Part shown: positions 3,993 to 32,800 of the stretch, one piece after another
Numbering within the stretch: position 1 is the stretch's first letter
Layout of the letters: every line of letters begins with the position of its first letter
Origin: an uncultured Methanosarcinales archaeon
GTDB taxonomy: Archaea > Nanobdellota > Nanobdellia > Woesearchaeales > JABIAG01
DNA: 64,000 nt
Assembly (NCBI GenBank): GCA_964561995.1
Contig: CAZLQZ010000003.1
Span: 5,056 to 69,055, forward strand
Direction of reading: 5' to 3'
Made by a program: the position numbers and the translations under genes
The notes under the pieces: model-generated
What the model was told of the DNA's origin: nothing
Seen by the model: only the letters and a program-made list of their open reading frames with translations
Database searches by the model: none

Positions 3993-6032
3993 TTAAATTA
4001 TTGAAACTGGTGCTTCTCCATGTTCATTATAATCAAAATTATCTTTTTGAACGCCAAGATTATTAATAGAAGGGTCTACAGGAATTAATAAAAATTCAGC
4101 CTGATTACCATACCTAAAAGGGTTTTTTAGTGGAATTAGTCCTAATGGGGCAAGTGTTACCACATTATAAACCGGTTCGCCAAATCCTGAATTTAATGCA
4201 TTTGAGATAAGAACACTGGGCATTTGACCCATAGTATGATAAAAGTAATATTTGTTTTGGAAATCTTTTGTTTCAGTTCCATCTAAATTTTCTAAAACTA
4301 AAGTTGGATCCCTTAAGTTTAATTTAACAGCAGCATATTCAATAGAAGGATAAGGGGGGATTGCAACAGTTAACATTGGAGAAATAATTTCTAAAGGTTT
4401 AATAGGTAAAGTATCTTTAGAAGTTGCCTGCTTTTGTATTTCAAAAATATTACCATCATCATCATAAGCTACAATTTTAATGTTGTAGGGTTGATTATCT
4501 ATTAAATCATTTAAAACATAAACAAATTCACCATTATCATTAAAATAATAAGACATACCATTTTCAAACAGTCCTTGAGCACCAAAATTATATTCACACT
4601 TTAACGAATTTCCGGCATTTTGCATCCTACATCTATCAAAAGGTTTTTGATTACCATATCCCCAATCAATTTCATCATAAACTAAAACATCTTTGAAAGG
4701 AATAATTGTCTTTTTCAATTTATTATCAACATAAATCTCATACTTTTTCAAATCTAAAGACAAAGTATCTTTCCAAATAACCAATAATGTTCCTTGAGAA
4801 AACTCTTTTGATTCAACTCTAAAATCCTGAAGAGATAAAAAGGGTTCAACTTGGTCTTCAATATAAACTGCGAAATTATACTCCAAATTGTTTTCATAAG
4901 ATTGAATCTTTGATTGTGTTAAGTTAAACCTAAACATCCTATTTTCATAATCACATTCTTTTAAATTTAAACCATTATATAATTTTGATTTAGGTATGAA
5001 ATAAACATTTTTTGAATCTTTTTTATAAAAATCAATTTCGTCCATGGGAGTTAAGGGCAAGTTATTAGTTTTAATTGTGTCTTTTAAGTTATATTTAATA
5101 TTATTAACCCGGGGAACAGGAACATAATCATTTTGATTTTGTTCTGCAATATGAAAATTCAAACTTGTTTGATATAAATTTCCACTTTCGTTAATTACTC
5201 TATTACCAACATCAAAATCAAAAGTAATATCTTCTTTTAATGAAGAAAAAGAGACGTAACAATCTTTCTGCTTAATTCTTTCTAATGTTTGAATGTAATC
5301 AATAAATTTAATCTTTGGATTTGTAATAATTGTTTGTTTTAATTCAAAAGGTATTATTTTATTAAATTCCTCGGTTTTGATTTTAACACAATCATTCAAA
5401 TTTTGTGTTGTTTTAGTATTTTCTTTATTATTACAATCTTCTAAATTTAGAATAAATTGTTCAATTGCTTGATAAGCGGATAAATTATAATCAAAATATT
5501 TAGTAAAAGCTGGTTTAAAAGAATAAATCCTTTTATCTGGTTCTTTTTTAGAAATGTTTATTTCCCTATCTAAAACAGATAATCCAGTTATGCTAAATTT
5601 AGTATTGTTATTTGCAAAAAATTTGAAATAGTTTTTATTTAGTTTATTGGTTACAATTAAGTCCTGAAATGATTTATTAAAAGGAACTAAAATTTGTTTT
5701 TCAACATTAGGAATGCATTTTGCATATTCTTCATTTGAATTTTTATAACTCCACAAATTAGCATTTTGGTAACTGCCACACTTGTTTTTATCGGCAAAAC
5801 CACCATTTGATGCCAACTCATATATTGCATCAATACCTGCAAGATTAGCAACAGTGTCATATTGAAAAAGTTCTATTTGAGCTTCTTGGTATTTAAAAAT
5901 TATTTGAGACTGTATTGTTCCTAAGGGGTCTGCATTGAATTTTTCACTAAAATTAACAAATGCAATTAAAAGAGAAATAAGAGTAATAAAAACTAACATT
6001 ATGCTAAAGATATATGCTTTTTTATTCATCAT
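3993..6032 (-). CDS. Large (679 aa) surface protein with a prepilin-like N-terminus; last gene of the pilin-like array
   Basis: N-terminus 'MMNKKAYIFSIMLVFITLISLLIAFV' (basic, KA|Y, hydrophobic helix). Its start overlaps the upstream gene's stop by 4 nt. Confidence 0.6.
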   Translation of the reverse strand: MMNKKAYIFSIMLVFITLISLLIAFVNFSEKFNADPLGTIQSQIIFKYQEAQIELFQYDTVANLAGIDAIYELASNGGFADKNKCGSYQNANLWSYKNSNEEYAKCIPNVEKQILVPFNKSFQDLIVTNKLNKNYFKFFANNNTKFSITGLSVLDREINISKKEPDKRIYSFKPAFTKYFDYNLSAYQAIEQFILNLEDCNNKENTKTTQNLNDCVKIKTEEFNKIIPFELKQTIITNPKIKFIDYIQTLERIKQKDCYVSFSSLKEDITFDFDVGNRVINESGNLYQTSLNFHIAEQNQNDYVPVPRVNNIKYNLKDTIKTNNLPLTPMDEIDFYKKDSKNVYFIPKSKLYNGLNLKECDYENRMFRFNLTQSKIQSYENNLEYNFAVYIEDQVEPFLSLQDFRVESKEFSQGTLLVIWKDTLSLDLKKYEIYVDNKLKKTIIPFKDVLVYDEIDWGYGNQKPFDRCRMQNAGNSLKCEYNFGAQGLFENGMSYYFNDNGEFVYVLNDLIDNQPYNIKIVAYDDDGNIFEIQKQATSKDTLPIKPLEIISPMLTVAIPPYPSIEYAAVKLNLRDPTLVLENLDGTETKDFQNKYYFYHTMGQMPSVLISNALNSGFGEPVYNVVTLAPLGLIPLKNPFRYGNQAEFLLIPVDPSINNLGVQKDNFDYNEHGEAPVSII

Positions 6033-8463: not shown

Positions 8464-9699
8464 TTAAGATTCAACAGTAATTTTGTACCCTTGTGCAGTA
8501 CAGTTTTTAATAAAATCTTCAGTCCCCTTAATATCGTCCCTACTAACTAAAGGATTAGGATAAGTTTCAATTAAATATTTAGCAAAACTATTAATAAAAG
8601 AATTTTCATCCCCCGGTAAATCTAACTCGGTTACTTCCTTAAAATCTGAATATTGAGGATTTTTCACTAAAGAATAAAGCCATTTGTATTCTCTAATATC
8701 AAAAGAAACAGGAGTTCCATCATCATAATAAACAAAATCACGTTTGAATTTTCCAATTATACATTTACAAGCATCACATGGTCCACCACAATCAATATTT
8801 ATTTCACCTTGTGAAATACTCCAAGATTCATCTTCACAATGTGGTACACAAATTCTGTCGCTTCTTCTGCACCCCTCGCCGTCTTGACAGTCATCATCAC
8901 CAATACAACCACACAATTTAGAAGAAGGATTACAGTAATTTGTTATACAATCATAATCACGTTGGCATTTTCTACCTATTGAACAAAATATGGGACATGA
9001 ACCTCCACAATCAATATCGGATTCAGAAGAATCTAAAATGTCATTAGAACACTTAGTAAGAAGGGCAGTCATAGAATTTATTTCAGTTCTTGTTAAACCC
9101 TTAACATCATTATTATTTTCTTTTATTGGAGTTGTTCTTATTACAATGTTTCCGTTTAAGTCAATTTTTTCTATAAGAATGTTAATTAAATCAAAATCAG
9201 TTAACGTTGTATAACTTCCAGAATATCCATAAGGTAAGGAATTTTTAAGTCTTGTTGAACCACTATAACCTTTTCCGTTAAAAATTGTTGGAGAAATGAA
9301 ATAAATATTATTTTCAAGAATTGAAGAACAAGCTAAAATTTTACTTTTTTCTTCAACTAAACAAATACAACCACCAGTTTTACAACCTAAATCTTCATAT
9401 TTTAATTCAATTGGGGAACCGGGTTCAAAAAGATTAGAACTTTTATCGGCATTTATATCAATTGCAATAAGACCATAACCATTTTTAATGTAAAAAGGCA
9501 TTTCTTTAGCAATATACTTTTCTTCAGATTCTAAAAAATATTCTACAGTAGACGTAAATCTTTCATAATTTAACTGTGAAGCCGGATGTATCCCATCTGA
9601 TAAAAAAATACCATAAAGTTTAGCACCAATCATAATAATAATTAATAATGCAATACCTGCAAGAACTAAATGCAAAACTTCACCCATAAATCCTTTCAT
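8464..9699 (-). CDS. Pilin-like Cys-rich protein, 411 aa, carrying two 'DIDCGG' Cys modules
   Basis: N-terminus 'MKGFMGEVLHLVLAGIALLIIIMIG'. Modules 'ESDIDCGGSCPIFCSIGRKCQRDYDCITNYC' and 'EINIDCGGPCDACKC' are related to the modules in 10325..11575 and in the giant protein. Confidence 0.6.
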   Translation of the reverse strand: MKGFMGEVLHLVLAGIALLIIIMIGAKLYGIFLSDGIHPASQLNYERFTSTVEYFLESEEKYIAKEMPFYIKNGYGLIAIDINADKSSNLFEPGSPIELKYEDLGCKTGGCICLVEEKSKILACSSILENNIYFISPTIFNGKGYSGSTRLKNSLPYGYSGSYTTLTDFDLINILIEKIDLNGNIVIRTTPIKENNNDVKGLTRTEINSMTALLTKCSNDILDSSESDIDCGGSCPIFCSIGRKCQRDYDCITNYCNPSSKLCGCIGDDDCQDGEGCRRSDRICVPHCEDESWSISQGEINIDCGGPCDACKCIIGKFKRDFVYYDDGTPVSFDIREYKWLYSLVKNPQYSDFKEVTELDLPGDENSFINSFAKYLIETYPNPLVSRDDIKGTEDFIKNCTAQGYKITVES

Positions 9700-10324: not shown

Positions 10325-11575
10325 TTACTTTGAACACAAATGGTTAGAATCACAATTTGCCGATTTACAATCCAAATTTATTAAACAATTTTCTCCAATT
10401 TCACATTTAAGACGACATGAACCACCACAATCAACATCGGTTTCGTCACCATCTTTTAAACCAGTATTACAAAAAAGATCCAAACAAATTCCTTCTTTAC
10501 CATACATAGTTTCACAAAAATCAGATTCACAATCTAAATCAATTTCGCATCGTTTTCCATTTTCACATTTAAAACAATGACCTCCACAATCAACATCGGT
10601 TTCATCACCATCTTTTGAACCAGTGTTACAATAATTTTTCATACACTTTTTTTCTTTATCATTTGCAGATATTCCACAAATACTAGATTCACAATCCTGA
10701 CCATTTAAACATTTATTATCGTATTCACATTTATTACATCTATCGCCACCACAGTCAACATCAGTTTCGTCAGGATCTTTGTTACCATTATTACAAAGAC
10801 TTTCACGACAAATTCCAGTTTTATCATTAGACATTTCACAAAAATCAGATTCACAATCTAAATCTATTGAACAATTTTTTCCATTTTCACAGCTATCACA
10901 TTCTTCACCACCACAGTCAACATCAGTTTCATCTTCATTAACTTCACCATCAAAACAACGATGTATATCTAAATCATAACCTTTATACTTACAATAAGAA
11001 ATAAAATATTTAATGCCTTTTTCTTCAGATTTTGAATTCATATCAACAGCTATTGTTTTATGTTCACCGTACAATGAATCAATAATTTCATCATAACTTC
11101 CTTCCTTATCATTAAACTTCAAAGTAAGTACATCGCCAGAATAAATATATTGAGTAGTATCACCATATAAATTAAATATTAATTCGTCCAAATAATTAAT
11201 TTTACATGAAGTTTCGCTATCTTTGCCTTCTTGTTCAAGATATATACAACATTTTAAATCATCAGCGATAGACTCTCTAGAATAAGTTATAAAATAATCT
11301 CCTTCAACTTTTGTTAATTTTTTACATTCCGCATTATTTAATACTGTGACTGAATCGTACTTTTTACCAGAACTTTTAACAATATCTAGTTCATTATATT
11401 CGTCTTTAATTTGAGAACAAAACTTTTTTGTTTTATCTTGAATTTCATTAAGACTTGAGCTTTGTTGGGAAAATGATTTGAAAACAATCAATAAAACAAC
11501 CGATGCAACAATAAGTACCATTACCATTATTACGGCTCCATTCATACTCAAACCAAAACCACCTTTCTTGTTCAT
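10325..11575 (-). CDS. Pilin-like protein (416 aa) with a paralogous N-domain plus four tandem six-Cys 'ETDVDCGG' modules; candidate tip adhesin
   Basis: N-terminus 'MNKKGGFGLSMNGAVIMVMVLIVASVVLLIVF'. Its N-domain aligns to the 137-aa protein 11635..12048 ('KFCSQ...ECKKL...LKCCIY' against 'KYCFQ...ECQVL...LLCCLY'). The C-terminal half holds 4 repeats 'NxGxKDxDETDVDCGGxxCxKCE..C....DCxSxxC'. A TATA-like motif lies in the upstream gap. Confidence 0.65.
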   Translation of the reverse strand: MNKKGGFGLSMNGAVIMVMVLIVASVVLLIVFKSFSQQSSSLNEIQDKTKKFCSQIKDEYNELDIVKSSGKKYDSVTVLNNAECKKLTKVEGDYFITYSRESIADDLKCCIYLEQEGKDSETSCKINYLDELIFNLYGDTTQYIYSGDVLTLKFNDKEGSYDEIIDSLYGEHKTIAVDMNSKSEEKGIKYFISYCKYKGYDLDIHRCFDGEVNEDETDVDCGGEECDSCENGKNCSIDLDCESDFCEMSNDKTGICRESLCNNGNKDPDETDVDCGGDRCNKCEYDNKCLNGQDCESSICGISANDKEKKCMKNYCNTGSKDGDETDVDCGGHCFKCENGKRCEIDLDCESDFCETMYGKEGICLDLFCNTGLKDGDETDVDCGGSCRLKCEIGENCLINLDCKSANCDSNHLCSK

Positions 11576-12106: not shown

Positions 12107-12406
12107 TTACGTTGTTGCTGGAATACAACAAACTGATTTACCAAAAATACCCTTACTACATTCAACATTATTAGATTTACAAACATTGGCTCCAACATAC
12201 TGAATGTGTGTTTGTTTATTACATGATACACCACATGAAGTACAATCACCGCCTTTACTTTCACAATCACCAATACCAGTAGTAAATCCGCCAGCTTGTT
12301 CTCTAAATATAAAAATCATAATTAATAAAACTATTAAAGCTAAAACAGCTATAACGATAGTAGAAATCGATAATTCAAATCCTTTATTATTTTTGAATAG
12401 TTTCAT
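12107..12406 (-). CDS. Small Cys-rich archaeal pilin, 99 aa (candidate major pilin, copy 1)
   Basis: N-terminus 'MKLFKNNKGFELSISTIVIAVLALIVLLIMIF' is a textbook class III signal (KG|F). It is a tandem paralogue of 12424..12714; both share 'GGF..G..DC.SKGGDC..C....VCCI'. Confidence 0.7.
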   Translation of the reverse strand: MKLFKNNKGFELSISTIVIAVLALIVLLIMIFIFREQAGGFTTGIGDCESKGGDCTSCGVSCNKQTHIQYVGANVCKSNNVECSKGIFGKSVCCIPATT

Positions 12407-12423
12407 TTTAATATAAAAAAAAA

Positions 12424-12714
12424 TTAAACGTTTGCTTCTGGACTAATGCAACAAACTTGTTTTCCATCGCCTGCAGAATTGTCGATTTGTCCACAATCTG
12501 TTCTTGCGGGATATCTTACTATTTGTCCAGTTGAAACTGCATCAACAACATCACAAGAATCGTAACAATCTCCGCCTTTACTTCGACAATCTTTTACTCC
12601 TACAGCAAATCCACCAAATTGACCAGTAAATACTGCGACTAAAACAACTAAAATTAGTAAAGCAATAGCTGCAACAACAATTGTAGTTATTGATAATCCT
12701 TGACCTTTTGACAT
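12424..12714 (-). CDS. Small Cys-rich archaeal pilin (candidate major pilin, copy 2) with its own promoter and Shine-Dalgarno
   Basis: Starts 'MSKGQGLSITTIVVAAIALLILVVLVAVF' from ATG 12712-12714; the track's three extra codons begin at a GTG. AGGTG (12721-12725, minus sense) lies 6 nt upstream and a TATA box 'agtttataaata' (12733-12744) lies about 20 nt further up. Confidence 0.7.
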   Translation of the reverse strand: MSKGQGLSITTIVVAAIALLILVVLVAVFTGQFGGFAVGVKDCRSKGGDCYDSCDVVDAVSTGQIVRYPARTDCGQIDNSAGDGKQVCCISPEANV

Positions 12715-12732
12715 TATAGACACCTCATGTTA

Positions 12733-12744
12733 TATTTATAAACT
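12733..12744 (-). promoter_or_regulatory. TATA box of an internal promoter driving the small Cys-rich pilin gene 12424..12714
   Basis: Minus-strand 'AGTTTATAAATA' sits upstream of an AGGTG SD and the ATG, inside an otherwise coupled gene array. A second 'ttatatat' lies at about 12765. Confidence 0.5.
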
Positions 12745-12782
12745 TTTTATCGTGGTTCTAATATATAAATCTTTCTATGATT

Positions 12783-13145
12783 TTAAGAGCAATACTTTTT
12801 AACATTATCATCAGAATTACTTAAATTGGGATTATCTGTACAAAAAAACTTTTGTTTTTCTTCTTCTTCCATTATAACTTGTTCTGGACCAAAACATTCA
12901 GAAGAATATTCATAATAAGATAGTGCGGCAGTATTGTCGTGAAGTTTTGCTTGTAAATTTTTTGAAAAGTCACCCAAATTAGTTTTTGAAATTTCACAAT
13001 ACTTATTACCGGAACCAAGTCCAATAACAGAAGCAAGCCTATCCTTTGTTCCCTTAAAAACAGGAGCAAAAACCATTAAAAGTAATAAAGATATAATTAC
13101 AATTACCGAAAGAGTTAATGTTAAATTAAATCCTTTTTTATTCAT
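12783..13145 (-). CDS. Pilin-like protein, 120 aa
   Basis: N-terminus 'MNKKGFNLTLTLSVIVIISLLLLMVFAPVF' (KG|F). 'KYCE...ECFG' is related to the 11635 and 10325 N-domains. Confidence 0.6.
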   Translation of the reverse strand: MNKKGFNLTLTLSVIVIISLLLLMVFAPVFKGTKDRLASVIGLGSGNKYCEISKTNLGDFSKNLQAKLHDNTAALSYYEYSSECFGPEQVIMEEEEKQKFFCTDNPNLSNSDDNVKKYCS

Positions 13146-13291
13146 CTTATATTTTTATACGCTTGAAAAAAGTCGGCAGAGTTAATTAAAAACCAAATTA
13201 CAATAAATAATAATATTCCAAGCATAACCCAAATAATTATGCTTTTCCAAGCAAGATCAAATCCGCCTTTTTTATTATTAAATAATTTCAT
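13142..13291 (-). CDS. Minimal 49-aa prepilin ORF missed by the ORF track
   Basis: Hand translation of the minus strand: MKLFNNKKGGFDLAWKSIIIWVMLGILLFIVIWFLINSADFFQAYKNIR. Its ATG overlaps the TGA of 13288..14220 (ATGA), and its TGA overlaps the ATG of 12783..13145 (ATGA). Confidence 0.55.
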   Translation of the reverse strand: MKLFNNKKGGFDLAWKSIIIWVMLGILLFIVIWFLINSADFFQAYKNIR

Positions 13292-17315: not shown

Positions 17316-17815
17316 CTTGTCAATGGTTGAATTTTCGTTGCGTCACCCAAACCTTCCATCTTAACTTCAATTTTACCATACTTAGTTTCATAACAAGTGT
17401 AATTATCGTCGTTAATACTAGTGAAATTTCCAATTTTAACACTTCCTAAATCAAATGCTTCTAAAACAAAACCGCCCTTTCCTAATAAAAATAAATTTTT
17501 GTTTGGAGATTCTCCTTCATAAGCTTGTAAAGCATAAGGCACTAAATTTCTATAAAAACTACAATCACTACAAGAAGTAATAAAACAAACTTGTTCGATT
17601 TTACTAGGAACATTATAAGAAAACACTTCAGAAGTACCCCTTAATCTTCTTACAGAATCTACATCTTCAAATATTTTATTAGTTAATTTAACCAAGGACA
17701 CATCATCAGAAGTTGAAAATATTGCGGCAATTCCTTTAAAAGATATTAAAAACATTAATCCTATTACTAAAGCAATTAAAATAAAAATAAATACTGTTGA
17801 TGTTTGTGCTTTCAT
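17312..17815 (-). CDS. Pilin-like protein (167 aa), translationally coupled to the giant gene
   Basis: N-terminus 'MKAQTSTVFIFILIALVIGLMFLISF' (KA|Q). Its ATG (17813-17815) overlaps the TGA of the giant ORF (17812-17814), forming ATGA. Confidence 0.6.
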   Translation of the reverse strand: MKAQTSTVFIFILIALVIGLMFLISFKGIAAIFSTSDDVSLVKLTNKIFEDVDSVRRLRGTSEVFSYNVPSKIEQVCFITSCSDCSFYRNLVPYALQAYEGESPNKNLFLLGKGGFVLEAFDLGSVKIGNFTSINDDNYTCYETKYGKIEVKMEGLGDATKIQPLTR

Positions 17816-20800
17816 TTTTTAGTCATCCTCTTTAATTTTTTGAATGGTGAAGATCTATTTTTCTTTTCGGGTAGTTGTTTTAAATCTTTAAATACGCCGG
17901 GCCCCGATTTAGGTTTTTCTAATGCTTCTAAATCTTTTTGTAACTTTTTTAATCTTGAAAAGGCATCATCAACATCAGATTTTGGTTTTTTAGTTGACTT
18001 TGCTTTTTTATTTAATTCATCTAAACTTATAAATTTATTACTTTTCTTTTTTCTTTTGGTTCTTTTCTTTTTAGGCTTTGTTTTGGGTTTTATAGGTTTA
18101 GAAATTGTTGATTTTGCTAAAGGTTTGCCACTGATTTTATTTTCAATAGGTTTTGTTTTAGTTAAAGGGGAAAGTTTCTTTTTCAAAGGAGGTAAATTCT
18201 TATTTAAAGATATAACCTTTTTACCCAAAGGAGGTAATTTTTTATTTAAAGGGGGAAGTTTACTCGTTAAAGGGGGCAATTTATTTAATGGTTTTCCAGT
18301 CCTGCCCAAGGGTGGAAAAGAATTTTTTGGTCTAACCCTTGGTGCGGTGGATAGGGAAAGTGGTGGCTTAGCAAAAAATTGCTTATAAGCAAAGAACCCA
18401 CCTACACCTAGAGCTGCCAAAACTAATAAAATTAGTAATAATAAAGGCCAAATTGAACCACCATCAGAAGCATCTAATGGATCTCTTCCAGCAGAAATTT
18501 CATCGCCGTCATTCATATTATCGTCATCACTATCCTCGTTTTTCGGATCAGTATTATATTGACTTTCTTGTAAATTGGTTAGACCATCTTTATCAGGGTC
18601 TAAAAATGCATCTGCGCTATCTCTTGGATCTAAATTAAATCTTATTTCCCAATCATTATCCATACCGTCCCCATCAATATCTTCGTCACACTCATCTCCT
18701 TTTCCATCACCATCTAAATCAGCTTGATTTTCATTAGGAACATTGTCACAGTTATCATTTGAATTCAAGAATCCATCATCATCGGAATCTACATCTTTTT
18801 CAGTACATCTTCCCGAGTCACACAATCCAGATAAACAATCTGCATTTTCAAAACAAACACTTCCTAAAGAACATTGATAGTATGGTAAACAAACTCCGCC
18901 ACAATCTAAATCAGATTCTCCAAAATCTAAATTGCCATTTTCACAAGAGTCCAATTCACAAACACCATTTACTACATCGCAATTCTCAGATTCACAATCT
19001 GAATTCAAATCACATTCTTCATCAATATCACACTTCTTTGAACATGTTCTTCCACAATCTACATCGGTTTCTTTACCATTTTTAATTCCATCACTACAAC
19101 TTGGAGCTAAACATACATTTGAAACGCAATTATCATAAATACAATCACTATCGTTTATACAAACTTTATTGTTGTAACATGAACCACACTGAGGTCCACC
19201 ACAATCTATATCAGTTTCATTACCGTTTTTAATATCATCGTCACATTCGGGAGGAGCTTTAGAATAATCAACAGTAAATTCGTCAGATTCTAAATCATCA
19301 CTTTCTAATCCAACATTATTTACTGCAATAACTTTCAAAACGTATTCAGTATCATTTTCTAAATCATTAACATCAAATCTTCCAGAAGCAATATATAATA
19401 TACCAGATTCAAACTCTACCGTTTCATTAACACACTCTTGCCCTTCTGAAGTCGAGATTTTATCGTCATCTAAGAAATCTTCATCTTCTAAACATTCCTC
19501 AATATCATCAGATTCTGAATCAGTTAATGCAAATTCCAAATAACAATCAAATCTATCATCTTCATCGTCATCAGCACTTCTTAAACAACTAACTAATTTA
19601 TCAACACTTAAATCAACCGAATCTACATCACTATCTATTTCGTCATCTATTGGTTCATCATCCAATTTTTCATAGATTTCCAATTTAAATTTATTTATTC
19701 CTGATTCATTATCATAAGCACTAACAAAATATCTTACTTCTTCATCATAATATGAATATTCTTCATCAACTAGACCCGTAATTTTGACTTGCTTCATTTC
19801 TGGTTCAGTCAAATCAACAATAAAAGAAGATGTTGCAGTTGTTGTATTAAGATTATAAATTCCAAATCTTCTACACATTACATCCAATTGGTAAGAACCA
19901 GTTTCCAAATCAGTAACTGGTCTGTAATGTTCTCTTTGATCAGATATAGTAAGATTGTTTGAAACTGAATTTAATTCAAATTCACAGCTTGCGGGTTTAT
20001 TAGTAGTTACAGCAATTGTTAATGAAGAGTTGCTTAATTTTGCACCATTTACTGGTCTTAAAATAGTTGCTGCAAATTCAGCACCAGGGTCTACTTGAAC
20101 ATCTACTGCACCAGTCCAATTATAACCTGCCTTATCAACACATCTGATTTGTATTGTGTTTACAGTATTATTATTAAGATGCTGTCCAACAACAAATTCT
20201 TGAGATTGTAAACTTTTGTAACTAGTTTCGATATCTTCATCCAAACCAGCAAAGATTTCCCATCCTAAAGAAACATTTCTATAACAAACCATGTTTTTCT
20301 CATCAGTAGTATATGCATACAAAATTCCAGAGTCAGTTGTAACCTTATTCATGTTTAAAGTTACACTCAAAGAATCTATGTCTTTTGTAATTACAAATGT
20401 GGCTGCATGATCAATTCCTTCTGCTTCTCCACCATAATTTTGATCTCTACAGATAACATATAATGGTTGATCAAACAATCCAGTAAATCCAGTTTGGTTA
20501 TGAATTATTTCATTTAATGATGAAAAATCTCTCATTTCAGTGGCATCGAAGTTGGTATCAAAATTAGACCACCTACATTCGGCACTTCTAGAAGTTTCAA
20601 TAACAAAATCTACAGGATCAATTTTAGTGTAACCAAAACTTGGATTAATTAATTTGATTCTAAAATCTTCAATTTCAATTTTAAAATTAAATACTTGTTT
20701 ATTTCCTTTATTTCCATATTGATCAATAGCTTCTATTTCTAAAACATAATCTGCTTCATTTAAATTTTCAAGAACTGAAATTGTAAAATTGTTAGAATTG

Positions 20801-23800
20801 TTATCGGTAATTGAAGTCAATACAATATTATCAGAATCATCTTTAATTACATAATAACTTACATTTACATTTTCTTGATAAATTATTGTCATATTTGGAC
20901 GGAGTTCAGTAAGAATATTTTCTAAAACGTCTGCTGCCGAAAATGGACTTTCGGGTTTGTAACCTTGTTGAATTATATTTACTTCGTCAAGCGAAACAAA
21001 TAAAAATTTATCATCAACATGAATTGCCTGATTCAAAAGTTCTTCTAATTCCTCGGGGTCAGCACTATCAAAAGGAAATGCTTCAATAAATTGATTTACA
21101 TCATTTTCAATGATATTTTGAAATTCTAAAGCTCTTAAATTGGATTTAAAAGACATAATAAGCACTCTTACATCTTCATCCGATTCACTTTTATAAGCTA
21201 AATTTAATGCATTTTCAATTCCAAAATCTTTTGCTTCATCACCTAACCCCACAATATCATACTCTTCATAAGTATAACCAATAATTTCTGAATTGATTTT
21301 GTCAATTAAATCTTTAATTTTACTTGTATAAGATAATTCTACAAATTCAGGTCCATCAGTATCAACCAAGAAATTACCTTTATATGTTCCGACATTGTTT
21401 GATATAACGCCAGTAGCGTTTATTTCATACTCATAATTTCCATCTGACGGAACTGTGAAGCTAAAATTAAATTCTACATAAGTTGCAGAAGCTGCATTTG
21501 CATCATGACTATATCCATCAATAAGTAATTCAGAATCTTTTACTTCTTTATCTGAAAATGCAGCAATTTCAATATCTTTAGAAGTTAAAACATTATCATT
21601 AACTGAATCGATAGTAATAACTGGCAAAGAATCATCAATAGTAAATTCAATTGAATTAGTTGGACCTTTACCACCTAAAATATTTATTAAAGTAATATTT
21701 AAAGTATAAGTTCCATTAGGAATCACTCCGAAATCCGATAAAGAAACTTTACTTAATTCTGAATTGATTTCAATAGTTCCATCGTTACATTTTGAATCAT
21801 CATTGCATAAAACTACATTAGTTTCATTATACACAATAAATTCTGCCTTGTTTACTTCAACTTCAGAATCAAATTTAGCAGAAACCTCAAATAATTTACC
21901 ATATTCCCCGTAATTTTCAGGAACTCTTAATTTGTTATCTAATACAACAGGTAAATTAGTGGTAAAATTAACAACGACACTTGATTGAGCAACATTACCT
22001 ACTTCATCAGCAACCTCCACTGTAATAACATTAATTCCTTTTTGAACTAGTTGAGCAGTTGTTGTATGTTCGCCATCTAAAGCAAATAGTTCTTCAGTTA
22101 AAATGTTATTAATAAATATCTTTGCTGTAACGTCTTCAAAAACTTCATATTTAAGTTCAGGATAAGTATTAGTTAAATACGGTCTTAAATTATCATAAGG
22201 TGTAATTATTCTTGCAGGGTCTACAGTTGTATCAACTTCAAAACTAACTACTTCATAAACGTCCGATATTTTTGGATCAAAAGGAAAACAAGATATTGAA
22301 AAGGGATAAATTCCATCTTTTAAATCAACAATAGAATTAGAAAGGTATGAAAATTGCAATTCATGATTTTTAAGATTATCATTTTCAGATTCCAATCTTA
22401 AAGTAACTTCTCCACTCGAATTAATTAAATATCCACCATCGAAATGAACATCACAAACTGCATCCCAATAAGTTTTAACTAATAATTTAGGTGTTGCATC
22501 TGCGGTTTTACCATTAGGTTTAATACTAACAATTTGTAATTCTAAATCAGTATCTACTGTTAAATTAACTTCTTGTTCAACGAAATTACCTGCACGGTCT
22601 AAACAATTAACAAAATAAGTATAATTACCATCCCCCACTCTGAACTCATCAGTTGAAAAAGTTGTTCCAAAGTCTTGTCCTAAAGAAGTGTAAACTGCTT
22701 CATCTTTTTCTTTATATTTACATTTAATTTCATCAAGAGAACTAACAGTTAAACGAGTTTTATTAATTTCATACAGCAAGTAATCATTAACTTCAACTTT
22801 AAATGCATTTTCAAATTCTGAACTAAAAACAGGTTCATTAAAATCAACAACAAGTTCTAATTGTGTTGTTTTATTATTACCAAATAAATCTTTACATGAT
22901 ACATCTAAACTATTACTTCCTTCAATTAGTTCTTCAACCATAGTATGATTAAATATAGTATCATTTTCTTTATTCATTGACATTTTATCATTATCAAAGT
23001 AAGAGACATAACATTCAGTACTTGGTTCGTGAGTTATGATTTTAAATGTAGCAAGGAGTTTATTTGTATATCCAGGATTTATATTTTGAGGGAAAAATAA
23101 TACTTTTGGGCCGTCTTTATCGGTAATCATGTTAATCAAATAGGATTTATCATTTCCTACATCATCTTGAATTGTAACATAAAGTACGTTTGATGTTTCA
23201 GCATTTTCCTCTTCTTCTAAAGTAACACCATTAATATCAAATTCAACATCATTACCACGTATAATTACATCATAACTGTCATCAGTATTGTCTAAGTAAG
23301 AAGATAAAATTATAGATGCATCAGTATCATCTTTATTATATCGCCCAAAGATATTAACTAATGAAGAATTTGTTCTAAATGCATAATCGTGAGTTTGTGA
23401 ATCTGCAGTCATAATTACACCATCATTACCAGTAACATCAATAAATGTGATTTCGGGAGTTGAATTGTCCACAAATATCGACCTATTAAATGAGTCTGAA
23501 ACTCTTCTTGAAGAATCATTTGCATAAATCTCAATTATGTGTTGTCCAGGCTCAAGATTAAATTCAATATCGTCGTCTTCGCCAAATTTGTAAATGCCAA
23601 AACCCTCACTATCTGTTTGAATATATTCTGCTATTTTTGTTGTAAATAATAAATTGTCAACTAAAACAGACAATGTTTTGATTCCATCACTTCCAACAGA
23701 ATAATCTTTTAATCTTCCCTTTAAACTAATTTTTTGATATTTTGATCTGATGTTATCCATGCTTTGGGTACTATCATAAACATCAGAAACTACAATGCTA

Positions 23801-26800
23801 TTTTTTACCAAAGGTACATCTGCATCCAATTTAAGACTGTATATTTCAGGAGTAGAATTGTCTACAAAGAATGAATAAGTGGAAGGAATTTCTGAATCAA
23901 CAAATAATATTTCTCTTACTGAGATTAAAATTTCACAATGTGAACATTTCCATTCTTCTTTAGGTGTTAAATTAAATAATCTTTTACCATCTCCAGTATC
24001 TGCAATAGTAATATTGACAATGAAATCATCTTGATTCATTAAAACTTCATCACCGCCATATTCTCTTACTTCGATAGGAGTTTTTATTGCATCTGTAAAT
24101 CCTAATTCTAAATCACTATCTTTTTTATCTTCAGCATCATTAAACTTAACAAACAAAGACTCTTTATCACTTTGAGTATATTCTGGTGCAAAAGTCCAAT
24201 CTGTATCATCACCTAAACTCCAACCAACAACACCGGGCATGCTTGTATCAAAACCAAAAGCTAATTTAAAAGGAGTTGGGAAAGGACTAAGTAAGAATTG
24301 GTCTTTTTCATTAACAGATGCTTTATTTCCAAAATCATCTTCTACACTATAATATATAAAATATATTGAATCTTCCCATCTTGAAGGACTTTCTAAGTCT
24401 AATGCATAGAATTGGAAAGTTGCTTCTGTTAAAGATTCAGCATTAGGATTTATTTCCCAAGTTTCATTTTCTTCTACAGTTGGACTCCAAGTATATTTGT
24501 AAAGTATAAATGTTCCATTATTAATTCCTGCATTATCTTTAAATGTTAAAGTAAATGGGTCATCAACATTACTTAAATATTGATTATGTTCATTAATTAT
24601 TGAATCATATAAAGGGCGACTTTGCATTTTTAATATTGAAGGGCCTTTCCAATCATTAATAAAAATAATTGTTTCTGAAGAAATGGAATTACCTGCTAAA
24701 TCTGTAACATTGAAAATAAAAGTTTTATTTACTTCTAAATTTTCAAGTTTTTCAATATTAAAACTATAATATAAAGAATCATTTATTTCTGATTTTCTTT
24801 CGTAGGTATTGTCATGGTCTTTTTCATTTAAAGTAATTAATGAAAATTCATTTACGCTAATGTTTATTTCTAGTTCAAAATTGTCTGGAACATGATAATA
24901 ATAAAGTATGCTTCCGCTTCTTTCTATTGGTTGACCGGGATATTCGGGATGAAATTCAGAATAAGTTGTTGGTACTATTTCTTCAATTTCTGGATCAATA
25001 GTGTCTAATGTAATGTTTAAAACAAAAGGATTTTCCATTTCATTATCTAAATCATCTTTAGCAATAAGTGTGATTTCTTCTAGGTCCCCTTCTTCTAATT
25101 CTAAATTTAATGTGATATTGTATGACAAATTCTTTCCAACTTGAACAAAAGATTCATGCTGTAATGGAAGATTTATTTCTGAATCAAAATAAGTTAATTT
25201 TACGTCGCTTAATTCATCAAGATTTTCAGCAATGTCGATTTGTAAACACATCAAACCACTTTCTTGAGTGTAATAAGAATTGCCAAGTCTACTGATTTCA
25301 GTTAATGGTGAACCACAACTTCCCAAACTTAAAATCATATCGTTGACAATTGGAGGTTGGTCATCTAAAGTTAAATTAACTCCATCAATTGGAACTCCGC
25401 AATCATTCGAAGTAAAACATTCATAATTTTTGGAATCAGTTAATTTTCCCGAACATTCAATATTAATTGTATTAACAACATTTTCAAAGAAATCATTTTT
25501 ATCTAAAGATGCTTTGTAAACGCCACCAGATTCAAATAATTCTTTTGCTCTTCCAACTATAGGTACGTTATCTTGATAAGATAATGTTTTTCTAGATTTG
25601 GTTATTCCAGTTTGGGAATTTTTAACAATATAAGAACACTTAATTGGATCTTGATCTTCGGAATATTTCCCACCAGGAACATTTGTTCCAATAATCAAAT
25701 CATAATTATCAAAATTTGGAACCCTTGAATTGTTTTCAGGTTGAATAAATGAAAAATTAAGTTTCGGATTAGATTGATAATTAAAACTTCCTTGAATTGT
25801 ATTTTCTTTACCATAATAATTTTTACAAATGATTGTTAAATCTGCATTATAATTTTTACCAACTTCTAAATCATTAGCAATTTCTTCAGACATAGAAACT
25901 TTTTTAGGTACAACTAAATCAAATAATTTATCTTCATAAGTTACTATATTTTTGCTTGGATTGTTTTGTGTAAAATTATAATTACATTTAACTTTTATAT
26001 TTTCTTGAGTATAAACTTCCATAGTAAAAGTTTCAGTCAAAAAGGACTGAGTTGTAATTATGGGAGAGAGTTCTAAGGGACTTTTTAATGTATAATCATC
26101 ATTATTAAGATATAATGGCCTAAATTCATAAATTTCATTTTCAAGTTCATCAACACAAGTAAAATGTAAATATTGCTGAGTTGCTAATGACAAAAATTCA
26201 ATTGAATGATTATAACCAAAAACATTATCATCTTCATTTGATGCTTGATTTCCAGAATTAGCCGGTTTTTCATTAGTATATTGATTACTAACCCAACACT
26301 TAGCAGGCTCATTTGTTTTAAAATAAATTTCAACATTGTCATTAATAGTATAATAACCCGGACCAAAATAATCATTACTTATTTCTGTATCAAAGTGATA
26401 ATAAGATTCTTTTCCTTCGGTAAAACTATTAGAATGCTCAATAACTGGACCAGCATTATCAATATTCATTTTTGCAAAAGAAAAACCAACATTATTTGCT
26501 AAATCGTTTGCTTGACATACAACAACTATCCTATTTTCTTTACCTGAATCTGGCAATTCAATATCATCTGTTGAAATATCAAAAGCATCAGAATAATCAT
26601 TAACTCCATTATTCATATAGGGTGTCCAATTATAAGAATAGTTGTTATAATTAACTTCTGACACATCTTCAAAAATTTTGTATATTATATTTTGACAATC
26701 TGTATCATCACTACATTCACAACTAAAGTTTGCAATTATGCCGTCACCAATCCATTTGAATTTAAGAGGTGCTAAAGTATCATTTAATTTTGCATCAATT

Positions 26801-29800
26801 ACAGGTTCAACATTATCAATAATAACTTCAAAATCTTTAGTAATTACATTAGTTGATTTATCTTCCATCATTAATTGTAACATTATTTTTTCATAAGAAT
26901 AAAGAGTTGTATCAAACTTAAATCTAATTTGGGGACTTTTTATTTTTCCAGGAGTTAGTAATTTTGGCGAATCTATTTCTTCACTGTAATAATAAAAATC
27001 AATCTTTTCTTCTGCAAAAGGGAGAGTATCATTTGTTACATTAATTCTGTATGCTCCATAATTATAACCTGCGTGATTTCTAATATCTAAAAAATCAACA
27101 TCTAAACTTAAAATGGGTTTATTATTTCCAATAACTAAACTTTCATCTTCGCCTTCAATAGACTTGATTTGGGGGTTTTCATCATCAGTATGAACAATTG
27201 CATAATGTTCATATTGCTGCCCTTCATCTCCAGAATCACGATTTACATAAATTGAAGAAATATTAATCAAATAATCCTTTCCATTTTCTAACAAATTACC
27301 AGATTTAAAAGAAACATTATATTTGTTTAAACCTTCATAAGTTTCAGGTACATCAAATACTTGTATTTGTGCTTTTTTAATTGTATCTCCACTTATTGCA
27401 GTTACGTTTCTTAATGAAATATTAAACTTGTTATTAGTAGTATATAATTCAATTGTAAAACTAGTTTCGCAATTGGCATTAAGATAAAAGTGTTCAATAT
27501 AAGGCATATCCTTATACTCTTCGGGTTCATACAAATTGTCAACTTTTCTTCCAGAATCTAAAAGATTCATTTCAATATCAAAAGCACAAGGGTCATAATA
27601 AATAGTGTTTAAATAACTTCCAGTTTGAGAATTTCCCACTTTATCTTTTGCTTCAACATTTATATCAAAAGAAACTCTATTTTCAGTTGTTTCATCACAT
27701 TCAAAGAAATCAAAAAAATCAACATTTTCATCAGTTAACAATTCACTATTAATACCTATATTAAATATGTTACCTTGAGAATTTTTAACAACATAATCTA
27801 ATGACAGTTCTTGAATATAGCCATAATCATTCAAAACGTATTTTAGGTCTGAATCAAAACCAGTAATTGTTAAAAAAATTTTACCTTTTGAAATGGTAAC
27901 TTTAATTGAAGATTTGTTTAATGAATCTACTCCAGAAAATTGTTCAACTAATGTTATACCAATTCCTCTTTCTAATGTTGAATATGCATTATCTAAAGGT
28001 ACAACATTTACTTGCGGACCAATTAAATCAACAAAAAACTCTTTTTGTTCAGTATGATAATTAGCTACATCATCATACAACTTAAAATCATAAACATACC
28101 TTCCCCTTTCATCAAAATCATCAGATTCATTACTAAAAGTAAACAATCCGGGATAGTTATCATAATTATAAAAATTAAATATTTCAGTGTCATTAGTTAA
28201 GAAAACATCAACTGCATCAATTAAAGTAATATGATAATACAATCCAGAAGAACCGTCACATTCACCATTTTCTGCAGAGAAAGAAGCAGGAAGGTCATAT
28301 CCATAAAGTTTTAAGTTTATAGGACCATTAACTGCAATATATTTGTTTTCATAAGTTCGTATTGCTTCTTTATCATTTTCATCAATTAAATCATTAGGAA
28401 TACACAAAAGCAAATTATCGTTTTTTGTTTGTTTCAATATCTTTCTATCTGAAATAGAAAATTCCATTTCTTCATCTAAAGCATAATTAACAATTAAATT
28501 TTCTAAAAAAATAATTTCATTTTTATCTGAAGCAATAACTTCTACAGTGTCATCAGCTGAAACGCCAACAAAATTAATTGTTTGTCCTGAACCATAAAAT
28601 TGTCCATCTGCCGGACTATTCCAATCAATACTTGAAGGGGCAGTCGTATCTAATTTAAAATTAATATCGAAATCAGCAGATAATTGAGAATTTACACTTT
28701 TAACATCAAACAATCTTAAGGTTTTTTCATTACCTGACTCATCTTCTTTAAAGATTTTTAATTCATAAAGTTTAGAATTTTCTCCAGCTTCATTAAGTAA
28801 AAAATTATAATTTTTATCAAATCCATTCAAGATTCCTGCATTTCTAAAAATAGTTTCAACATTTTCGTCAAAAGTTAGATTTATTAAAAATGCATCATGT
28901 AAATCATCTGAATCATAATCACCATAACCTATTTTGTAAGTATCAGTTTGCGAATTATATTGACAATTAGGTTTTATTTCACAATCTATAAAAGTATAGT
29001 TCAATAATACTGCTGGCGTTGAATCATTTACTGAAACATTAAATTTAATTGTATCATTACATACTCCTGCAGCATCACACAATTTTATAAACATAGAATA
29101 ATTTCCAAAAACTAAGAAATCGTAATCATCTTGAGTTAAGTTACCTTCAAAAGTATTTTCATCAATTAAATCTAATTCAAAATCTTTTACATTACTTCCG
29201 TCTTTTACAAATTTAATACTGCTAAAGTTAACCAATTGAGTATATTTTGGATCTGCACCTTTAACAACAAAAGTATAGTTTTGTTTTTTATCTAATGTGA
29301 AATTCTCTTTATTATATGGTAAAACAAATCCATCATCAATTTTAGTAATTGTTATGGGATTTTGTGATTCTGTTTTTTCAATTAATACTGGAGGAATAAA
29401 ATCAACAAAATAAACAGACAAATCAGAACTGGTTTCTTGATTCAAATGGTCTATGGCGTATACCGTTACTAAATTCATACCATGATTTAATTTTATTTTC
29501 CCATTGTAAGTATATTCAGTAGGGAAGTCATTATTAGTTGACAATTCAGTAATAAATACATTACTATCTAAAACCCATTCGGTAGATTCAAAATCGGATT
29601 CTGACTCATAATTTTTAACTTCTACTAAAGCTGCCTTCATACCTTTATCTTCAGAAATAATTACCTCAGCATCAATATTGATTATTTCTAAAGGAACACT
29701 AAGATAAATAGAAAGTTCTTCACTATTTTTTTTTAGTGTTGTACTTTGAATTTCTGGTGCACCCGAATCTAAATTAGATGAAAAATCAAATAATACCTTA

Positions 29801-32800
29801 TTTAAGTTTGAAATACCATCTTGTGCACTTACTTTAACTAGGCCATCGACACTTTCTAAACTAAATACTCCATTATAAGAAGTTGAAGTTGGAGGAATTG
29901 AATCAGAATAAGTAAAAATTTGACAAACATCCAATCCTGCTTCATAAGGATAATTGCTTACATCTGCCAAAGTGATTTTTGAAATTATTTTTTGAGAATA
30001 TAATGGTGCCTTTAATTTATCACCACAATTATTTAAATCGTTAATTTTAAATTCATAATCTTTTTTACCATCAATTGTAAAATTTTCAAACACAAAATTA
30101 GCATACTCATCAACAACCATATTCTCTGAATTAATCAAAATCGATTTATCAATTAATAATCCATTTTCATAAGCTTCAATTGAATAATCGCAACTTGATG
30201 AAGGTTTACTAGCAATCATTAAATCAAAAGAGTGCACTAAATATTCATTATCAAAACTAAGAGTAACATTAATTTCTAGATTAGATGTTGTTATTCCAGA
30301 AGGAATATTATCTATTTTTGCAATTTCATTTCCTGCCAAATGTAATGATTGTCTTGTATCTTTACATTCTAATTTAATTTGAGAAGAAGAAGAAAATGCC
30401 ACATTACTTGTTTTTCTTAAAAATCCATAACTGTCAGTATCTCCATCATTAAAATCATTAAATTCTTCATCATTAATTTCAATTACAATTTCAGGAGAAA
30501 AAGCATCAATAACTAATGTAAAACTTTCATTATCAGAAATAGTCTCACCATTAATTGTTTTTGAACAATTATAATCAACTTGATAAACGCCATTTGGATT
30601 ATCGCCCAAAAGGTCTCCATAATCTATAAAATCACTTTTTAAACAAAAATATCCCTCTTCAAAATATGTATCACTACAACCAGAATCAACATTAACAACT
30701 TCATATTGTTGTGAAGTAAAACCATTTCTAAATGTATAACTACATTCGCTTGGTTCAAATGAAAAACTAGTTGTATAGGATAATAATTTAAAATCTGATC
30801 CTTTTGTTCTTATTCCTGTATCTAAATAATTATGAACTTCATCATCTAAAGAAACTGCCTTAAATAAAGATTTCTCAATTATTGGGTCTTTATCAACTAA
30901 AAAATGGCGTGTTGCAATATCAATGTTACCAGTAACATCCAAGCATCTTAATTTTAAAATATATTCGCCATCTTTTAATCCGGGCACAGAAATTTCCGCT
31001 ATGTCCCCTTCAGAAACTTCAATTCCATCTCTTAAATAATCACTATAAATTAAATAATTAAAACTCTCATCGTACAATTTTTCAAAAGTTTCAGTACAAC
31101 CTCCTCTTGCAGAAGTACTTACCTTATATTGCACATTAAGAGTCATTCCTTGTGCATCTTCATCTAAACTTTGTTCTAAAATATTAATTAATGGAGGAGA
31201 AGTATCAATAGGAAATGATAACTCTTTAACTTTTTCTTTATTAAAATTTTGATCTTCAGTAAAATATCTTACAAACCTTGTTCCAGAAGGAATAGGTAAA
31301 TCACCATCATAAAAATAAGACCTATACTTTTGATTTTCTATTTCAATTGGATCTAAACTAATGGTGGGGTCTAAAGCATAAATAAAATTTTGATTTGACC
31401 AATCATTATCTAAAATGTGTCTATCATAAGTACAATCATTTAGCTCATCTTCTCCAAAACAATAATATAAAATAAAATTAGCCAAATAATATTCATCTAA
31501 ATATTCATCCTGGTCATCAACTTGAATTGTGAATTTCACTTCACTTTCAGACATAAAAGTTGAAGTTTTAAGTTGATCATTTGCAGAAGTACTTTTCTTA
31601 ACTATTTGAACAGAAGTTCTAGGGGGATTTAAATCCTGTTCACATTCAATAAATATTGAATCAAATTGCGGTGAAGGATCTGTTAAAGCACGTCCATAAC
31701 TTCCTTCAATATTATCACAACTACTCTTTCTACAAAATTCTTCAGTCGGAATTTTATCACCATAAAGTGCATCATTTTCAAATCTTCTATCGCTCACATC
31801 CCAATTACAAGCTTCAAAACCACATGAATTATAATATTCAACAGAATCAGCATCCACAAAACCATTACAATCTTCAGCTTCAAAAATCATACATCCTTTT
31901 TTCAAATTAATAATATCTTCACAATCAGAACAAACACTGACTTCATCAGAATCTAATTTTCCACAAGATTCATTATGACCTATTGCTGAACAAACATCTT
32001 TATTACAGCCAGAAAGCAGATCAATTTTATCACATTCAGAACATAAATTTTCATTTTCATCTTTTGAAACACAAATTCCTTCTCCTAAATTAGTTGTTTC
32101 TGGAATAGAAACCCAACTACATCCTGTTTCTTCAGAGCTTTGCAATCCTAAATTACAATGGTCTATTTCACAAGCATATTGAGATTTATATCCTAAACAA
32201 CTATCAATTCTAAGACAACTTCCACAAGAATCGGTTACCCTATTATCAATTGAAGTTATAGAATTTTCATCATCAAGAACATATCTTGAATAATCCAAAT
32301 AACAATAATTAGGATTAGTTGAACTACCTTCACACGTTTTAGCATTGTTTGTTTCCCATGAATAAGTTTTAAAATTGAGTAATCCAAAAAAGTTTGAAAC
32401 TCCAAACAAGTTTCCTGTATAAGAAGTACCAAAAGAACTACATTCATCAGCTTCAACACAATTTGCATTTGGTTTACCATTTTCGTATGAATTTAAACAA
32501 TAAAGGTCATAAGGATCAGAAGGACAATCATTCAATCCCAAAACTTTCAATCCTCCCAAATATTCAAATAAAAACTCACTTCCAAGTTCATAACTTAAAG
32601 TGGATCTACTTTGATCATTACAACTGTATTTTGTTTTTGAATTTAAAGAAGGAATACAAAAATTATCATTCAAAGATAAACCATCACAAATTTTATCGCC
32701 AGAAAATTTGACACTTGTATTTTTAATACCATTACATCCACCAACAGTAACATCATCAGAAATACCACAATTTCCTACTCCTTTTATAATTAATTCATAA

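Follow-up and report, generated by a model that had tools for sequence, protein, structure and literature searches.

Which gene in a long array of pilin-type genes encodes the principal subunit of the filament that the array may specify? We address this question for a 64,000-nucleotide (nt) stretch of contig CAZLQZ010000003.1 (hereafter the window), from a Woesearchaeota-type DPANN archaeon, in which two small neighbouring genes encode prepilin-like, cysteine-rich proteins of 96 and 99 amino acids (aa). DPANN archaea are believed to rely on physical contact with host cells, and pili have been seen on them. Makarova et al. 2016 were unable to find the pilins that belong to the nanoarchaeal ATPases (PMC4858521). 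An earlier inspection of the window, made from its letters alone (the sequence-only reading), had singled out the two small proteins as candidates for the major structural subunit. Our analysis indicates that the product of the 96-aa gene is probably the principal subunit of a filament resembling type IV pili.

Two paralogous genes for small prepilin-like proteins

The two genes lie in tandem:

12424–12714, minus strand: gene for the 96-aa prepilin-like protein, the conserved copy and candidate major pilin
12107–12406, minus strand: gene for the 99-aa paralogue, with eight cysteines and the leader MKLFKNNKG before FELSIS

BLASTP aligns the two products with 42% identity over 92 aa (E = 2e-10), which identifies them as paralogues. 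The sequence-only reading had recognized this relationship, and the protein consensus that it gave is essentially right. It had also taken both proteins to be 99 aa long. This holds for the downstream copy, but the upstream copy measures 96 aa from its ATG at 12714–12712 and would reach 99 aa only from a GTG at 12723. We rejected the GTG as a start because it lies inside the Shine–Dalgarno (SD) sequence described below and homologues begin with M(S/K)KGQG at the position equivalent to the ATG. The gap between the 96-aa gene and the preceding stop is 68 nt (12715–12782); the 59 nt given previously is obtained only by measuring to the GTG. The 99-aa gene begins 17 nt past the 96-aa gene, and the spacer contains a T9 run but neither a TATA box nor an SD sequence.

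Class III signal peptides have Gly, Ala or Ser at position −1, a charged residue at −2 and a cleavage site ahead of a hydrophobic domain of about 20 residues (PMC4371748). The 96-aa protein has M-S-K-G before Q, and the 99-aa protein has N-N-K-G before F. In both, a hydrophobic helix of more than 20 residues follows K-G, and the mean Kyte–Doolittle score of the best 18-residue window after the site is 3.55 (96 aa) or 3.66 (99 aa). The 96-aa protein, which is the smallest full pilin of the array, comprises the leader MSKG, a predicted cleavage site before Q5, a helix at about residues 5–41 and a head with six cysteines (C43, C50, C54, C74, C88 and C89). Its AlphaFold2 (AF2) model consists of helix 5–41 and a small head (predicted local distance difference test score, pLDDT, of 73). 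An EppA-type site is absent: the 96-aa copy and most of the family have Gln at +1 but Ile at +5 (QGLSI), the 99-aa copy has Phe at +1, and neither copy matches DUF361. By their N-termini both proteins look like type IV prepilins. The identification of these proteins as pilins by the sequence-only reading is borne out by K-G at −2 and −1, the hydrophobic helix, the modelled helix 5–41, the 17 other pilin-like genes nearby and the presence of a prepilin peptidase gene in the window.

A word search found 29 homologues of the 96-aa protein, and a profile of these 29 matched 4,226 clusters (50% identity) at E ≤ 1e-3 and 1,545 at E ≤ 1e-10. The matches listed are all about 80–150 aa long, and most cover nearly the whole profile. 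Among species-representative genomes, the carriers are labelled as Woesearchaeota, Nanoarchaeota, Pacearchaeota or Nanobdellota genomes or metagenome-assembled genomes, and the family is also present in the complete genomes CP010425 (AR15) and OY970338. Many family-bearing records are titled 'uncultured Methanosarcinales archaeon', which looks like a placeholder or an automated-submission error and not the true taxonomy. Neither Pfam nor NCBIfam has a family model for either protein or for 47 family members, and a cluster look-up returned no names or accessions for the two small proteins. The N-terminus is almost invariant across the family (M-K-K-G/A-Q-G-L/I-S-I-T/N-T-I-V/I-V/I-A-A-I-A-L-L/I-V-L-V-V-L...); the head is variable, with its cysteines kept.

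Archaeal major pilins are described as prone to tandem duplication (PMC4858521), and tandem copies of the family occur in 26 of the 58 related loci that are at least 9 kb long (one copy in 31 loci, two in 20 and three in 6). The 99-aa protein finds only itself in a word-based homologue search but matches the family profile at E = 4.9e-22. In all related loci it matches the orthologue of the 96-aa gene best, and it is therefore a divergent, lineage-specific duplicate. We also considered it as the orthologue of the second small gene of one related locus (L004) and rejected this assignment, as its best match there is the first copy.

The promoter and Shine–Dalgarno sequence of the 96-aa gene

Four elements flank the coding sequence of the 96-aa gene:

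12761–12774, minus strand: promoter conserved in the family, consisting of a B recognition element (BRE)-like AGAAAGA and the TATA box TTTATATA (12768–12761)
12733–12744, minus strand: proximal TATA-like element AGTTTATAAATA, a possible second, leaderless-type promoter or a chance occurrence
12721–12726, minus strand: SD sequence GAGGTG, 6 nt upstream of the ATG at 12714–12712
12415–12423, minus strand: T9 run directly after the stop of the 96-aa gene, a candidate archaeal oligo-T terminator or attenuator between the paralogues

The sequence-only reading had located three of these motifs accurately: AGTTTATAAATA at 12744–12733, the distal TATA box, read as ATTTATATAT, at 12770–12761, and GAGGTG at 12726–12721, six nt before the ATG. 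However, it had made the proximal TATA the key element of the promoter. This element is not conserved, and we find no counterpart of it in the related loci L006 or L008; the conserved element is the distal one (12761–12768). L006, L007 and L008 have the TTTATATA box with a purine-rich, BRE-like stretch about 39–53 nt upstream of the ATG, and L004 has TTTAAATA in the equivalent position of the TATA box. GAGGT(G) in L006, L007 and L008, or GGAGG in L004, lies 5–6 nt upstream of the ATG.

We counted these elements in 132 non-identical family genes from the fetched loci (84 first copies and 48 later copies) and in 714 control open reading frames (ORFs). A strong SD sequence precedes 57 of the family genes and 32 of the control ORFs, and a strong SD sequence together with a distal TATA box precedes 44 and 2, respectively. 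Among the first copies, the SD core is found in 67 and the distal TATA, 39–67 nt upstream of the ATG (median start −50), in 57; 53 of the 84 have both. Their upstream consensus, [CA]GAAAnA-TTTAWATA, is fitted by AGAAAGA-TTTATATA in the window (12774–12761). By contrast with the first copies, none of the 48 later tandem copies has the SD core and distal TATA together. A putative dedicated promoter on the smallest pilin, as the sequence-only reading had it, is strongly supported by this conserved architecture (53 of 84 against 2 of 714), but it would serve the 96-aa copy only. In L007, the small pilin gene lies directly after an unrelated TRAM gene, where it heads the downstream half of the cluster, and it keeps the promoter element despite this different neighbour.

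These signals stand in an A+T-rich context. The G+C content of the window is 28% (A+T 72%), and its archaeal nature is evident from an RPA gene with an archaeal DUF2240 domain and from its BRE/TATA promoters. Most of its genes look leaderless, with a TTTATA-type box ending 23–27 nt before the ATG: a TATA-like hexamer starts between −34 and −27 in 21 of 45 genes, an SD-like motif is found in only 7 of 45 and the full GAGGTG in only 3 of 45. Where most genes are leaderless, as in these genomes, a leader combined with a strong SD sequence sets apart a special class of genes that are probably highly expressed. The length of the upstream gap does not set the 96-aa gene apart, as had been claimed earlier. 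The genes starting at 12048, 11575, 10264, 9699 and 8347 have gaps of 58, 59, 60, 64 and 116 nt, which hold leaderless-type promoters, and the gene at 15033 has a gap of 95 nt.

Applying the spacing rule of the window's leaderless genes to the distal box places the predicted transcript start at about 12735–12740, with a leader of about 21–25 nt. This lies outside the range of 12715–12730 that the sequence-only reading had expected. A start about 25 nt downstream of the proximal TATA would in fact remove the SD sequence that the same reading invoked. Oligo-T is the archaeal intrinsic termination signal. Runs of at least nine T in the sense of the T9 occur only three times in the 64 kb, and T-rich tracts past the pilin stop are also found in L006, L007 and L008. 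An RNA fold of the pilin transcript region gave z = −0.38, with no indication of a structured element.

Two other accounts of transcription have to be weighed against a conserved distal promoter. If the proximal TATA were the active one, the mRNA would be leaderless or nearly so and the SD sequence would be irrelevant. TTTATA ends 22 nt before the ATG, which is close to the 23–27 nt of the leaderless genes, but with this spacing transcription would begin at the start codon or within it. Moreover, L006 and L008 keep the distal TATA and the SD sequence while lacking the proximal element, and a conserved GAGGTG at a fixed spacing argues for a leadered mRNA, so we regard the proximal element as a very improbable site of the main start. 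The other account dispenses with a dedicated promoter: the array would be one operon read from upstream of the giant gene at its head, and the TATA strings in the gap would be there by chance. TATA-like words are indeed common at 72% A+T, and several neighbouring gaps also hold such strings. Chance would nonetheless have to produce a BRE/TATA and an SD sequence that keep their position and sequence across lineages whose heads are only about 50% identical, that occur together in 53 of the 84 first copies but in only 2 of the 714 controls, and that the L007 pilin retains after an unrelated gene. We give this account hardly any credence.

The cysteine-rich head

The sequence-only reading had proposed a conserved pattern of six cysteines and a disulfide-stabilized head. 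The pattern applies to the 96-aa copy but not to the 99-aa copy, which has eight. Across the family, 225 members have six cysteines, 28 have four and only 3 have an odd number; the number is even in 264 of the 267 members counted. Such a nearly universal even count argues that all the cysteines are disulfide-bonded, and it fits the proposed stabilization of the head. The cysteines usually follow the pattern C-x6-C-x3-8-C-x9-20-C-x3-14-CC, in which the second one lies in K-G-G-x-C. The canonical C1-x(5-8)-C2 spacing is missing in 48 of 289 sequences, among them a sub-family with another six-cysteine framework, C-x3-C ... C ... CCC (for example ...TDTCAQKC...GCCCVPK; L017, L018, L021, L022, L027 and others), whose members often stand in tandem with canonical ones.

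Beta-defensins have the framework C-x4-8-C-x3-5-C-x9-13-C-x4-7-CC with G-x-C at the second cysteine, disulfides C1–C5, C2–C4 and C3–C6, and a three-stranded antiparallel sheet. The family consensus agrees with this framework and many members (for example P0135 and P0170) fit it exactly, whereas the 96-aa copy of the window has longer loops (x6, x3, x19 and x13). We aligned the family profile by hhalign with a profile of twelve beta-defensin-fold sequences; the six cysteines fall in register, at a probability of 48% and E = 1.9e-4, and 0 of 200 column-permuted control profiles reach this score. In a four-cysteine subclade, C3 and C6 are missing together, which fits a C3–C6 pairing as in beta-defensins. 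In an AF2 model of the head (pLDDT 70), the positions of C2 and of C5–C6 fall in short strands.

Database searches gave a weaker picture. Nearly all the weak Pfam and PDB matches have the beta-defensin fold (Defensin_beta, Inhibitor_I68, gallinacin-11, crotamine and platypus defensin-like peptides), and none is significant: the best E values are 0.013 (PF00711), 0.035 (Inhibitor_I68) and 0.33–4 (PDB sequences, where the family profile reached no E below 0.33), all short of the cut-offs. Other Pfam and NCBIfam matches of the proteins, their neighbours and the 47 members are sub-threshold and correspond to transmembrane segments. Foldseek of the head model against the PDB returned no defensin match. 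The heads are mostly acidic or neutral, not cationic. We therefore treat the defensin likeness as a lead, with a shared fold or ancestry unproven. It seems to us improbable that the head shared by this DPANN-wide family is a genuine mini-domain of the beta-defensin type (trans-defensin), of which an archaeal filament would present thousands of copies, although the consequences would be considerable. To our knowledge, the trans-defensin fold has so far been reported only in animals. If the proposal is true, it would point either to an ancient prokaryotic origin of the beta-defensin fold or to striking convergence, and it would raise the idea of a pilus whose own surface binds to or disturbs the membranes of the host in episymbiosis.

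The pilin-type array and the role of the 96-aa protein

The two small genes are part of a larger array, and a prepilin peptidase gene lies further along the window:

3993–34860, minus strand: co-directional array of 19 genes, presumed minor pilins and an adhesin around the small pilin
50516–51460, plus strand: prepilin peptidase, Peptidase_A24 (Pfam PF01478, E = 9.5e-8, score 32.9 bits, cut-off 26.5)

Eighteen of the 19 array products have a class III signal-peptide-like (prepilin-type) N-terminus, in which [KRE][GAS] closes a short basic leader and a strongly hydrophobic stretch follows. Many of the genes overlap by 4 nt, and the array is headed by an ORF of 5,682 aa that encodes a surface protein. 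The Peptidase_A24 product is presumed to be the enzyme that processes the array prepilins. The array is syntenic gene by gene in L004, L006 and L008, including the flanking RPA, YdjM and epimerase genes, and in the 58 loci a median of 6 class III-like ORFs per 12 kb surround the small gene in the same direction. No other protein of the cluster is as well conserved as the small pilin, which has 60–64% identity compared with 18–45% for the other members and 52% for RPA.

We propose the following scheme, in which paralogy, family membership, synteny, the conserved promoter and SD architecture, the cysteine pattern and the presence of the peptidase gene are observed, and cleavage, filament formation, abundance, transcript ends and disulfide pairing are predicted. 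The 96-aa precursor would be inserted in the membrane, the A24 prepilin peptidase would remove the 4-residue leader MSKG, the nearly invariant hydrophobic helix would pack in the filament core, and the head of about 55 residues, with three disulfides, would form a variable surface. Within the array, the 96-aa gene would be a transcription unit of its own, with the BRE/TATA at 12761–12774, a leader of about 21–25 nt, the GAGGTG SD sequence and the T9 at its stop. Its own promoter, leader and SD sequence suggest an output much higher than that of the translationally coupled flanking genes, the presumed minor or tip pilins; the giant protein would be an adhesin. The T-tract may attenuate read-through into the 99-aa gene, a recent, divergent tandem duplicate that would be expressed only by such read-through, as an alternative or minor subunit.

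The signs of a major pilin are the gene's own promoter, SD sequence and T-tract, its conservation, which is the highest in the cluster, its small size, its tandem expansion, the nearly invariant helix combined with a variable head and the very large family. Archaeal major pilins are described as small, with a hydrophobic domain that hardly varies, tandem copies and genes not linked to those of the ATPase (PMC4371748, PMC4858521), and the 96-aa gene matches them in these respects. Several points weigh against this interpretation. The status of the 96-aa protein as the major subunit is well motivated, but we infer it from indirect signs. Neither in the 64-kb window nor within 6 kb in the 87 loci related to it did a regular-expression scan for ORFs with T2SSE/FlaI-type Walker A motifs detect a FlaI/PilB-type ATPase, and a gene for a TadC/PilC platform protein was likewise not seen there. 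Neither protein and none of the 47 members matches Class_IIIsignal/DUF361, archaeal Pilin_N or the NCBIfam flagellin/pilin models at E ≤ 1; however, short hydrophobic N-termini are hard for hidden Markov models, so the missing match bears on how the family is filed and not on the mechanism. Foldseek found no structural neighbour in the PDB for the full-length model or the head-only model. The proximal TATA, being near the leaderless spacing, makes the transcript start ambiguous, and a second, minor start is possible. Finally, at least five T within 35 nt of the stop occur in 37 of 132 family genes and 101 of 714 controls (28% and 14%), which is only an approximately twofold enrichment.

The same observations bear on what the protein might be if it does not form a pilus fibre. 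The array could encode pilin-like proteins that build no long filament but a short pseudopilus, an assembly like a bindosome or a stalk anchored in the membrane that presents the 5,682-aa protein, with the small protein as the most abundant stalk or anchor unit. An assembly ATPase or platform gene is linked neither in the window nor in the 87 loci, the cluster is headed by the giant surface protein and strictly syntenic with it, and archaeal class III signal peptides are also found on non-pilus proteins such as bindosome subunits (PMC4371748). However, major pilin genes unlinked to the ATPase are normal in archaea, as for EpdE and PilA1–6 (PMC4371748), and the near-invariant helix, huge family, strong expression signals and tandem expansion match descriptions of archaeal major pilins (PMC4858521); we consider such a stalk unlikely, while taking it seriously. 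A different function would follow if the proteins were membrane-tethered or released defensin-like effectors that use the pilin-type N-terminus only for export and anchoring and whose six-cysteine head acts on host or competitor membranes. The beta-defensin cysteine framework with its GGxC motif, the hhalign result and its controls, the concentration of weak Pfam and PDB matches on the beta-defensin fold and the dependence of DPANN archaea on host-cell contact are all in its favour. Yet the sequence matches are all non-significant and below Pfam cut-offs, Foldseek finds no defensin, the heads are mostly not cationic, a mere anchor needs no extreme conservation of the helix, and the gene sits in a 16-gene pilin module, so that we rate an effector role as very unlikely.

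As the probable principal subunit of a filament, the 96-aa protein can be compared with known pilins. It resembles the Epd pilins of Methanococcus maripaludis (major pilin EpdE, MMP1685) in its small size, short basic leader, K-G site before Gln, Gln at +1 and hydrophobic helix, and the gene, like that of EpdE, is unlinked to assembly ATPase and platform genes. The Epd pilus needs several minor pilins (PMC4371748, PMC4858521). Unlike the Epd pilins, the family has no Pfam or NCBIfam class III/DUF361 match and no Glu at +5, and it has a six-cysteine head; unlike epdE, the 96-aa gene lies inside an array of minor pilins and does not stand alone, and its 99-aa paralogue has Phe at +1. PilA1–PilA6 of Haloferax volcanii, each of them a potential major pilin whose gene is not co-located with pilB/pilC (PMC4371748), are likewise paralogous pilins with a near-identical hydrophobic domain and divergent heads. 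They belong to another sequence family, however, haloarchaeal pilins are not cysteine-rich, and the paralogues described here are in tandem, only the first having the promoter and SD sequence.

With the bacterial pilins PilA/PilE and ComGC, the 96-aa protein shares a lollipop architecture in which a conserved N-terminal helix carries a variable, disulfide-containing head. The arrangement that we propose for the array, with one abundant small subunit, larger minor pilins and a large adhesin, recalls bacterial type IV pili with PilY1/PilC adhesins. Bacterial major pilins differ from it in that the protein described here has an archaeal-type peptidase site (charged −2, no E5), an archaeal BRE/TATA promoter and, in a head of about 55 residues, three predicted disulfides where bacterial pilins have a single D-region disulfide. 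The cysteine framework and the G-G-x-C before the second cysteine recall the beta-defensin fold (beta-defensins, crotamine and tick carboxypeptidase inhibitor domains), but here the head is fused to a pilin helix and is not cationic, and the loops of the window's copy are longer (x19 and x13). Multiple conserved cysteines are also a feature of type IV filament components of Thermoproteales (Pyrobaculum/Thermoproteus), where they are thought to form stabilizing disulfides (PMC4858521; bioRxiv 10.64898/2026.04.22.720090). Those components, unlike the present family, come neither from a mesophilic DPANN lineage nor from the same protein family, and the subunit described here is much smaller.

The array and its surroundings hold further cysteine-rich and pilin-like genes. 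The giant ORF (17812–34860, minus strand; 5,682 aa, 147 cysteines) has an N-terminal signal-like sequence, cysteine-rich modules (ETDxDCGGxC...) and Asp-rich, calcium-binding-like repeats near the C-terminus, and a terminal hydrophobic segment followed by a Lys/Pro-rich tail. Its gene (start at 34860) is also leadered: GGGTGA stands ahead of the ATG, and a AAAGATTTATATA box is found some 60 nt upstream. L004 has a counterpart of more than 4,251 aa at the equivalent position. Two pilin-like proteins, of 416 aa with 38 cysteines (10325–11575, minus strand) and 411 aa with 22 cysteines (8464–9699, minus strand), are specific to the window's lineage. They contain repeated E-T-D-V-D-C-G-G-x-C-x-x-C modules, as in the giant protein, and each of their genes has a gap of about 60 nt and a leaderless-type TATA; over its first 125 residues, the 416-aa protein is related to the orthologue of the neighbouring 137-aa gene. 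A small ORF of 43–49 aa (13142–13291, minus strand; counterparts at 9402–9533 in L004, 5095–5235 in L006 and 8696–8833 in L008) keeps its place between the 294/310-aa gene and the 120/125-aa gene. The window's version, MKLFNNKKG followed by GFDLAWKSIIIWVMLGILLF..., is a prepilin-type leader and helix with almost nothing else. An 829-nt contig in the European Nucleotide Archive (L002) encodes an identical 96-aa pilin, but the gene upstream of it encodes 97 aa instead of 120 aa, which hints at strain-level variation in the gene beside the pilin promoter.

Outside the array, class III-like N-termini are found on a 480-aa protein (34950–36392, minus strand; MKG before QVTIF...) and, at 52532–58203 (minus strand), on proteins of 607 aa (MKNKA before QVTLF...) and 1,289 aa (47 cysteines and a Big_7 Ig-like domain). 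The position of the latter two genes, immediately downstream of the gene for the prepilin peptidase, suggests that there is a second pilin-like cluster. The window also encodes a secreted protein of 1,390 aa with 78 cysteines (42960–47132), a 981-aa protein with two radical SAM stretches, a SPASM domain and a C-terminal peptidase U32 domain (38228–41173, plus strand) and further radical SAM proteins (47371–48735 and 58573–59811). In L007, two DsbA/thioredoxin-like genes and a gene for a MopE-like copper-binding protein lie at 4056–5629, a few genes upstream of the small-pilin cluster; a link of these genes to oxidative folding of the cysteine-rich surface proteins is possible. A scan of the whole window gave no match in Rfam, and ARAGORN found no tRNA.

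Type IV pilins are expected in DPANN archaea in general terms, and cysteine-rich filament components are already known in Thermoproteales. In the searchable literature we found no description of the small-pilin family, the promoter signature or a defensin-like pilin head. No filament subunit is so far known for Woesearchaeales and Nanoarchaeota, and a single very large, unannotated family of proteins of about 90 residues is likely to supply the principal one. Around this small pilin, our analysis provides a conserved module of 16–20 genes and a recognizable promoter and SD signature, and with them a target for metaproteomics, antibodies, cryo-electron microscopy fitting and annotation models. 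If confirmed, a triple-disulfide, defensin-like head would be an unusual pilin surface.

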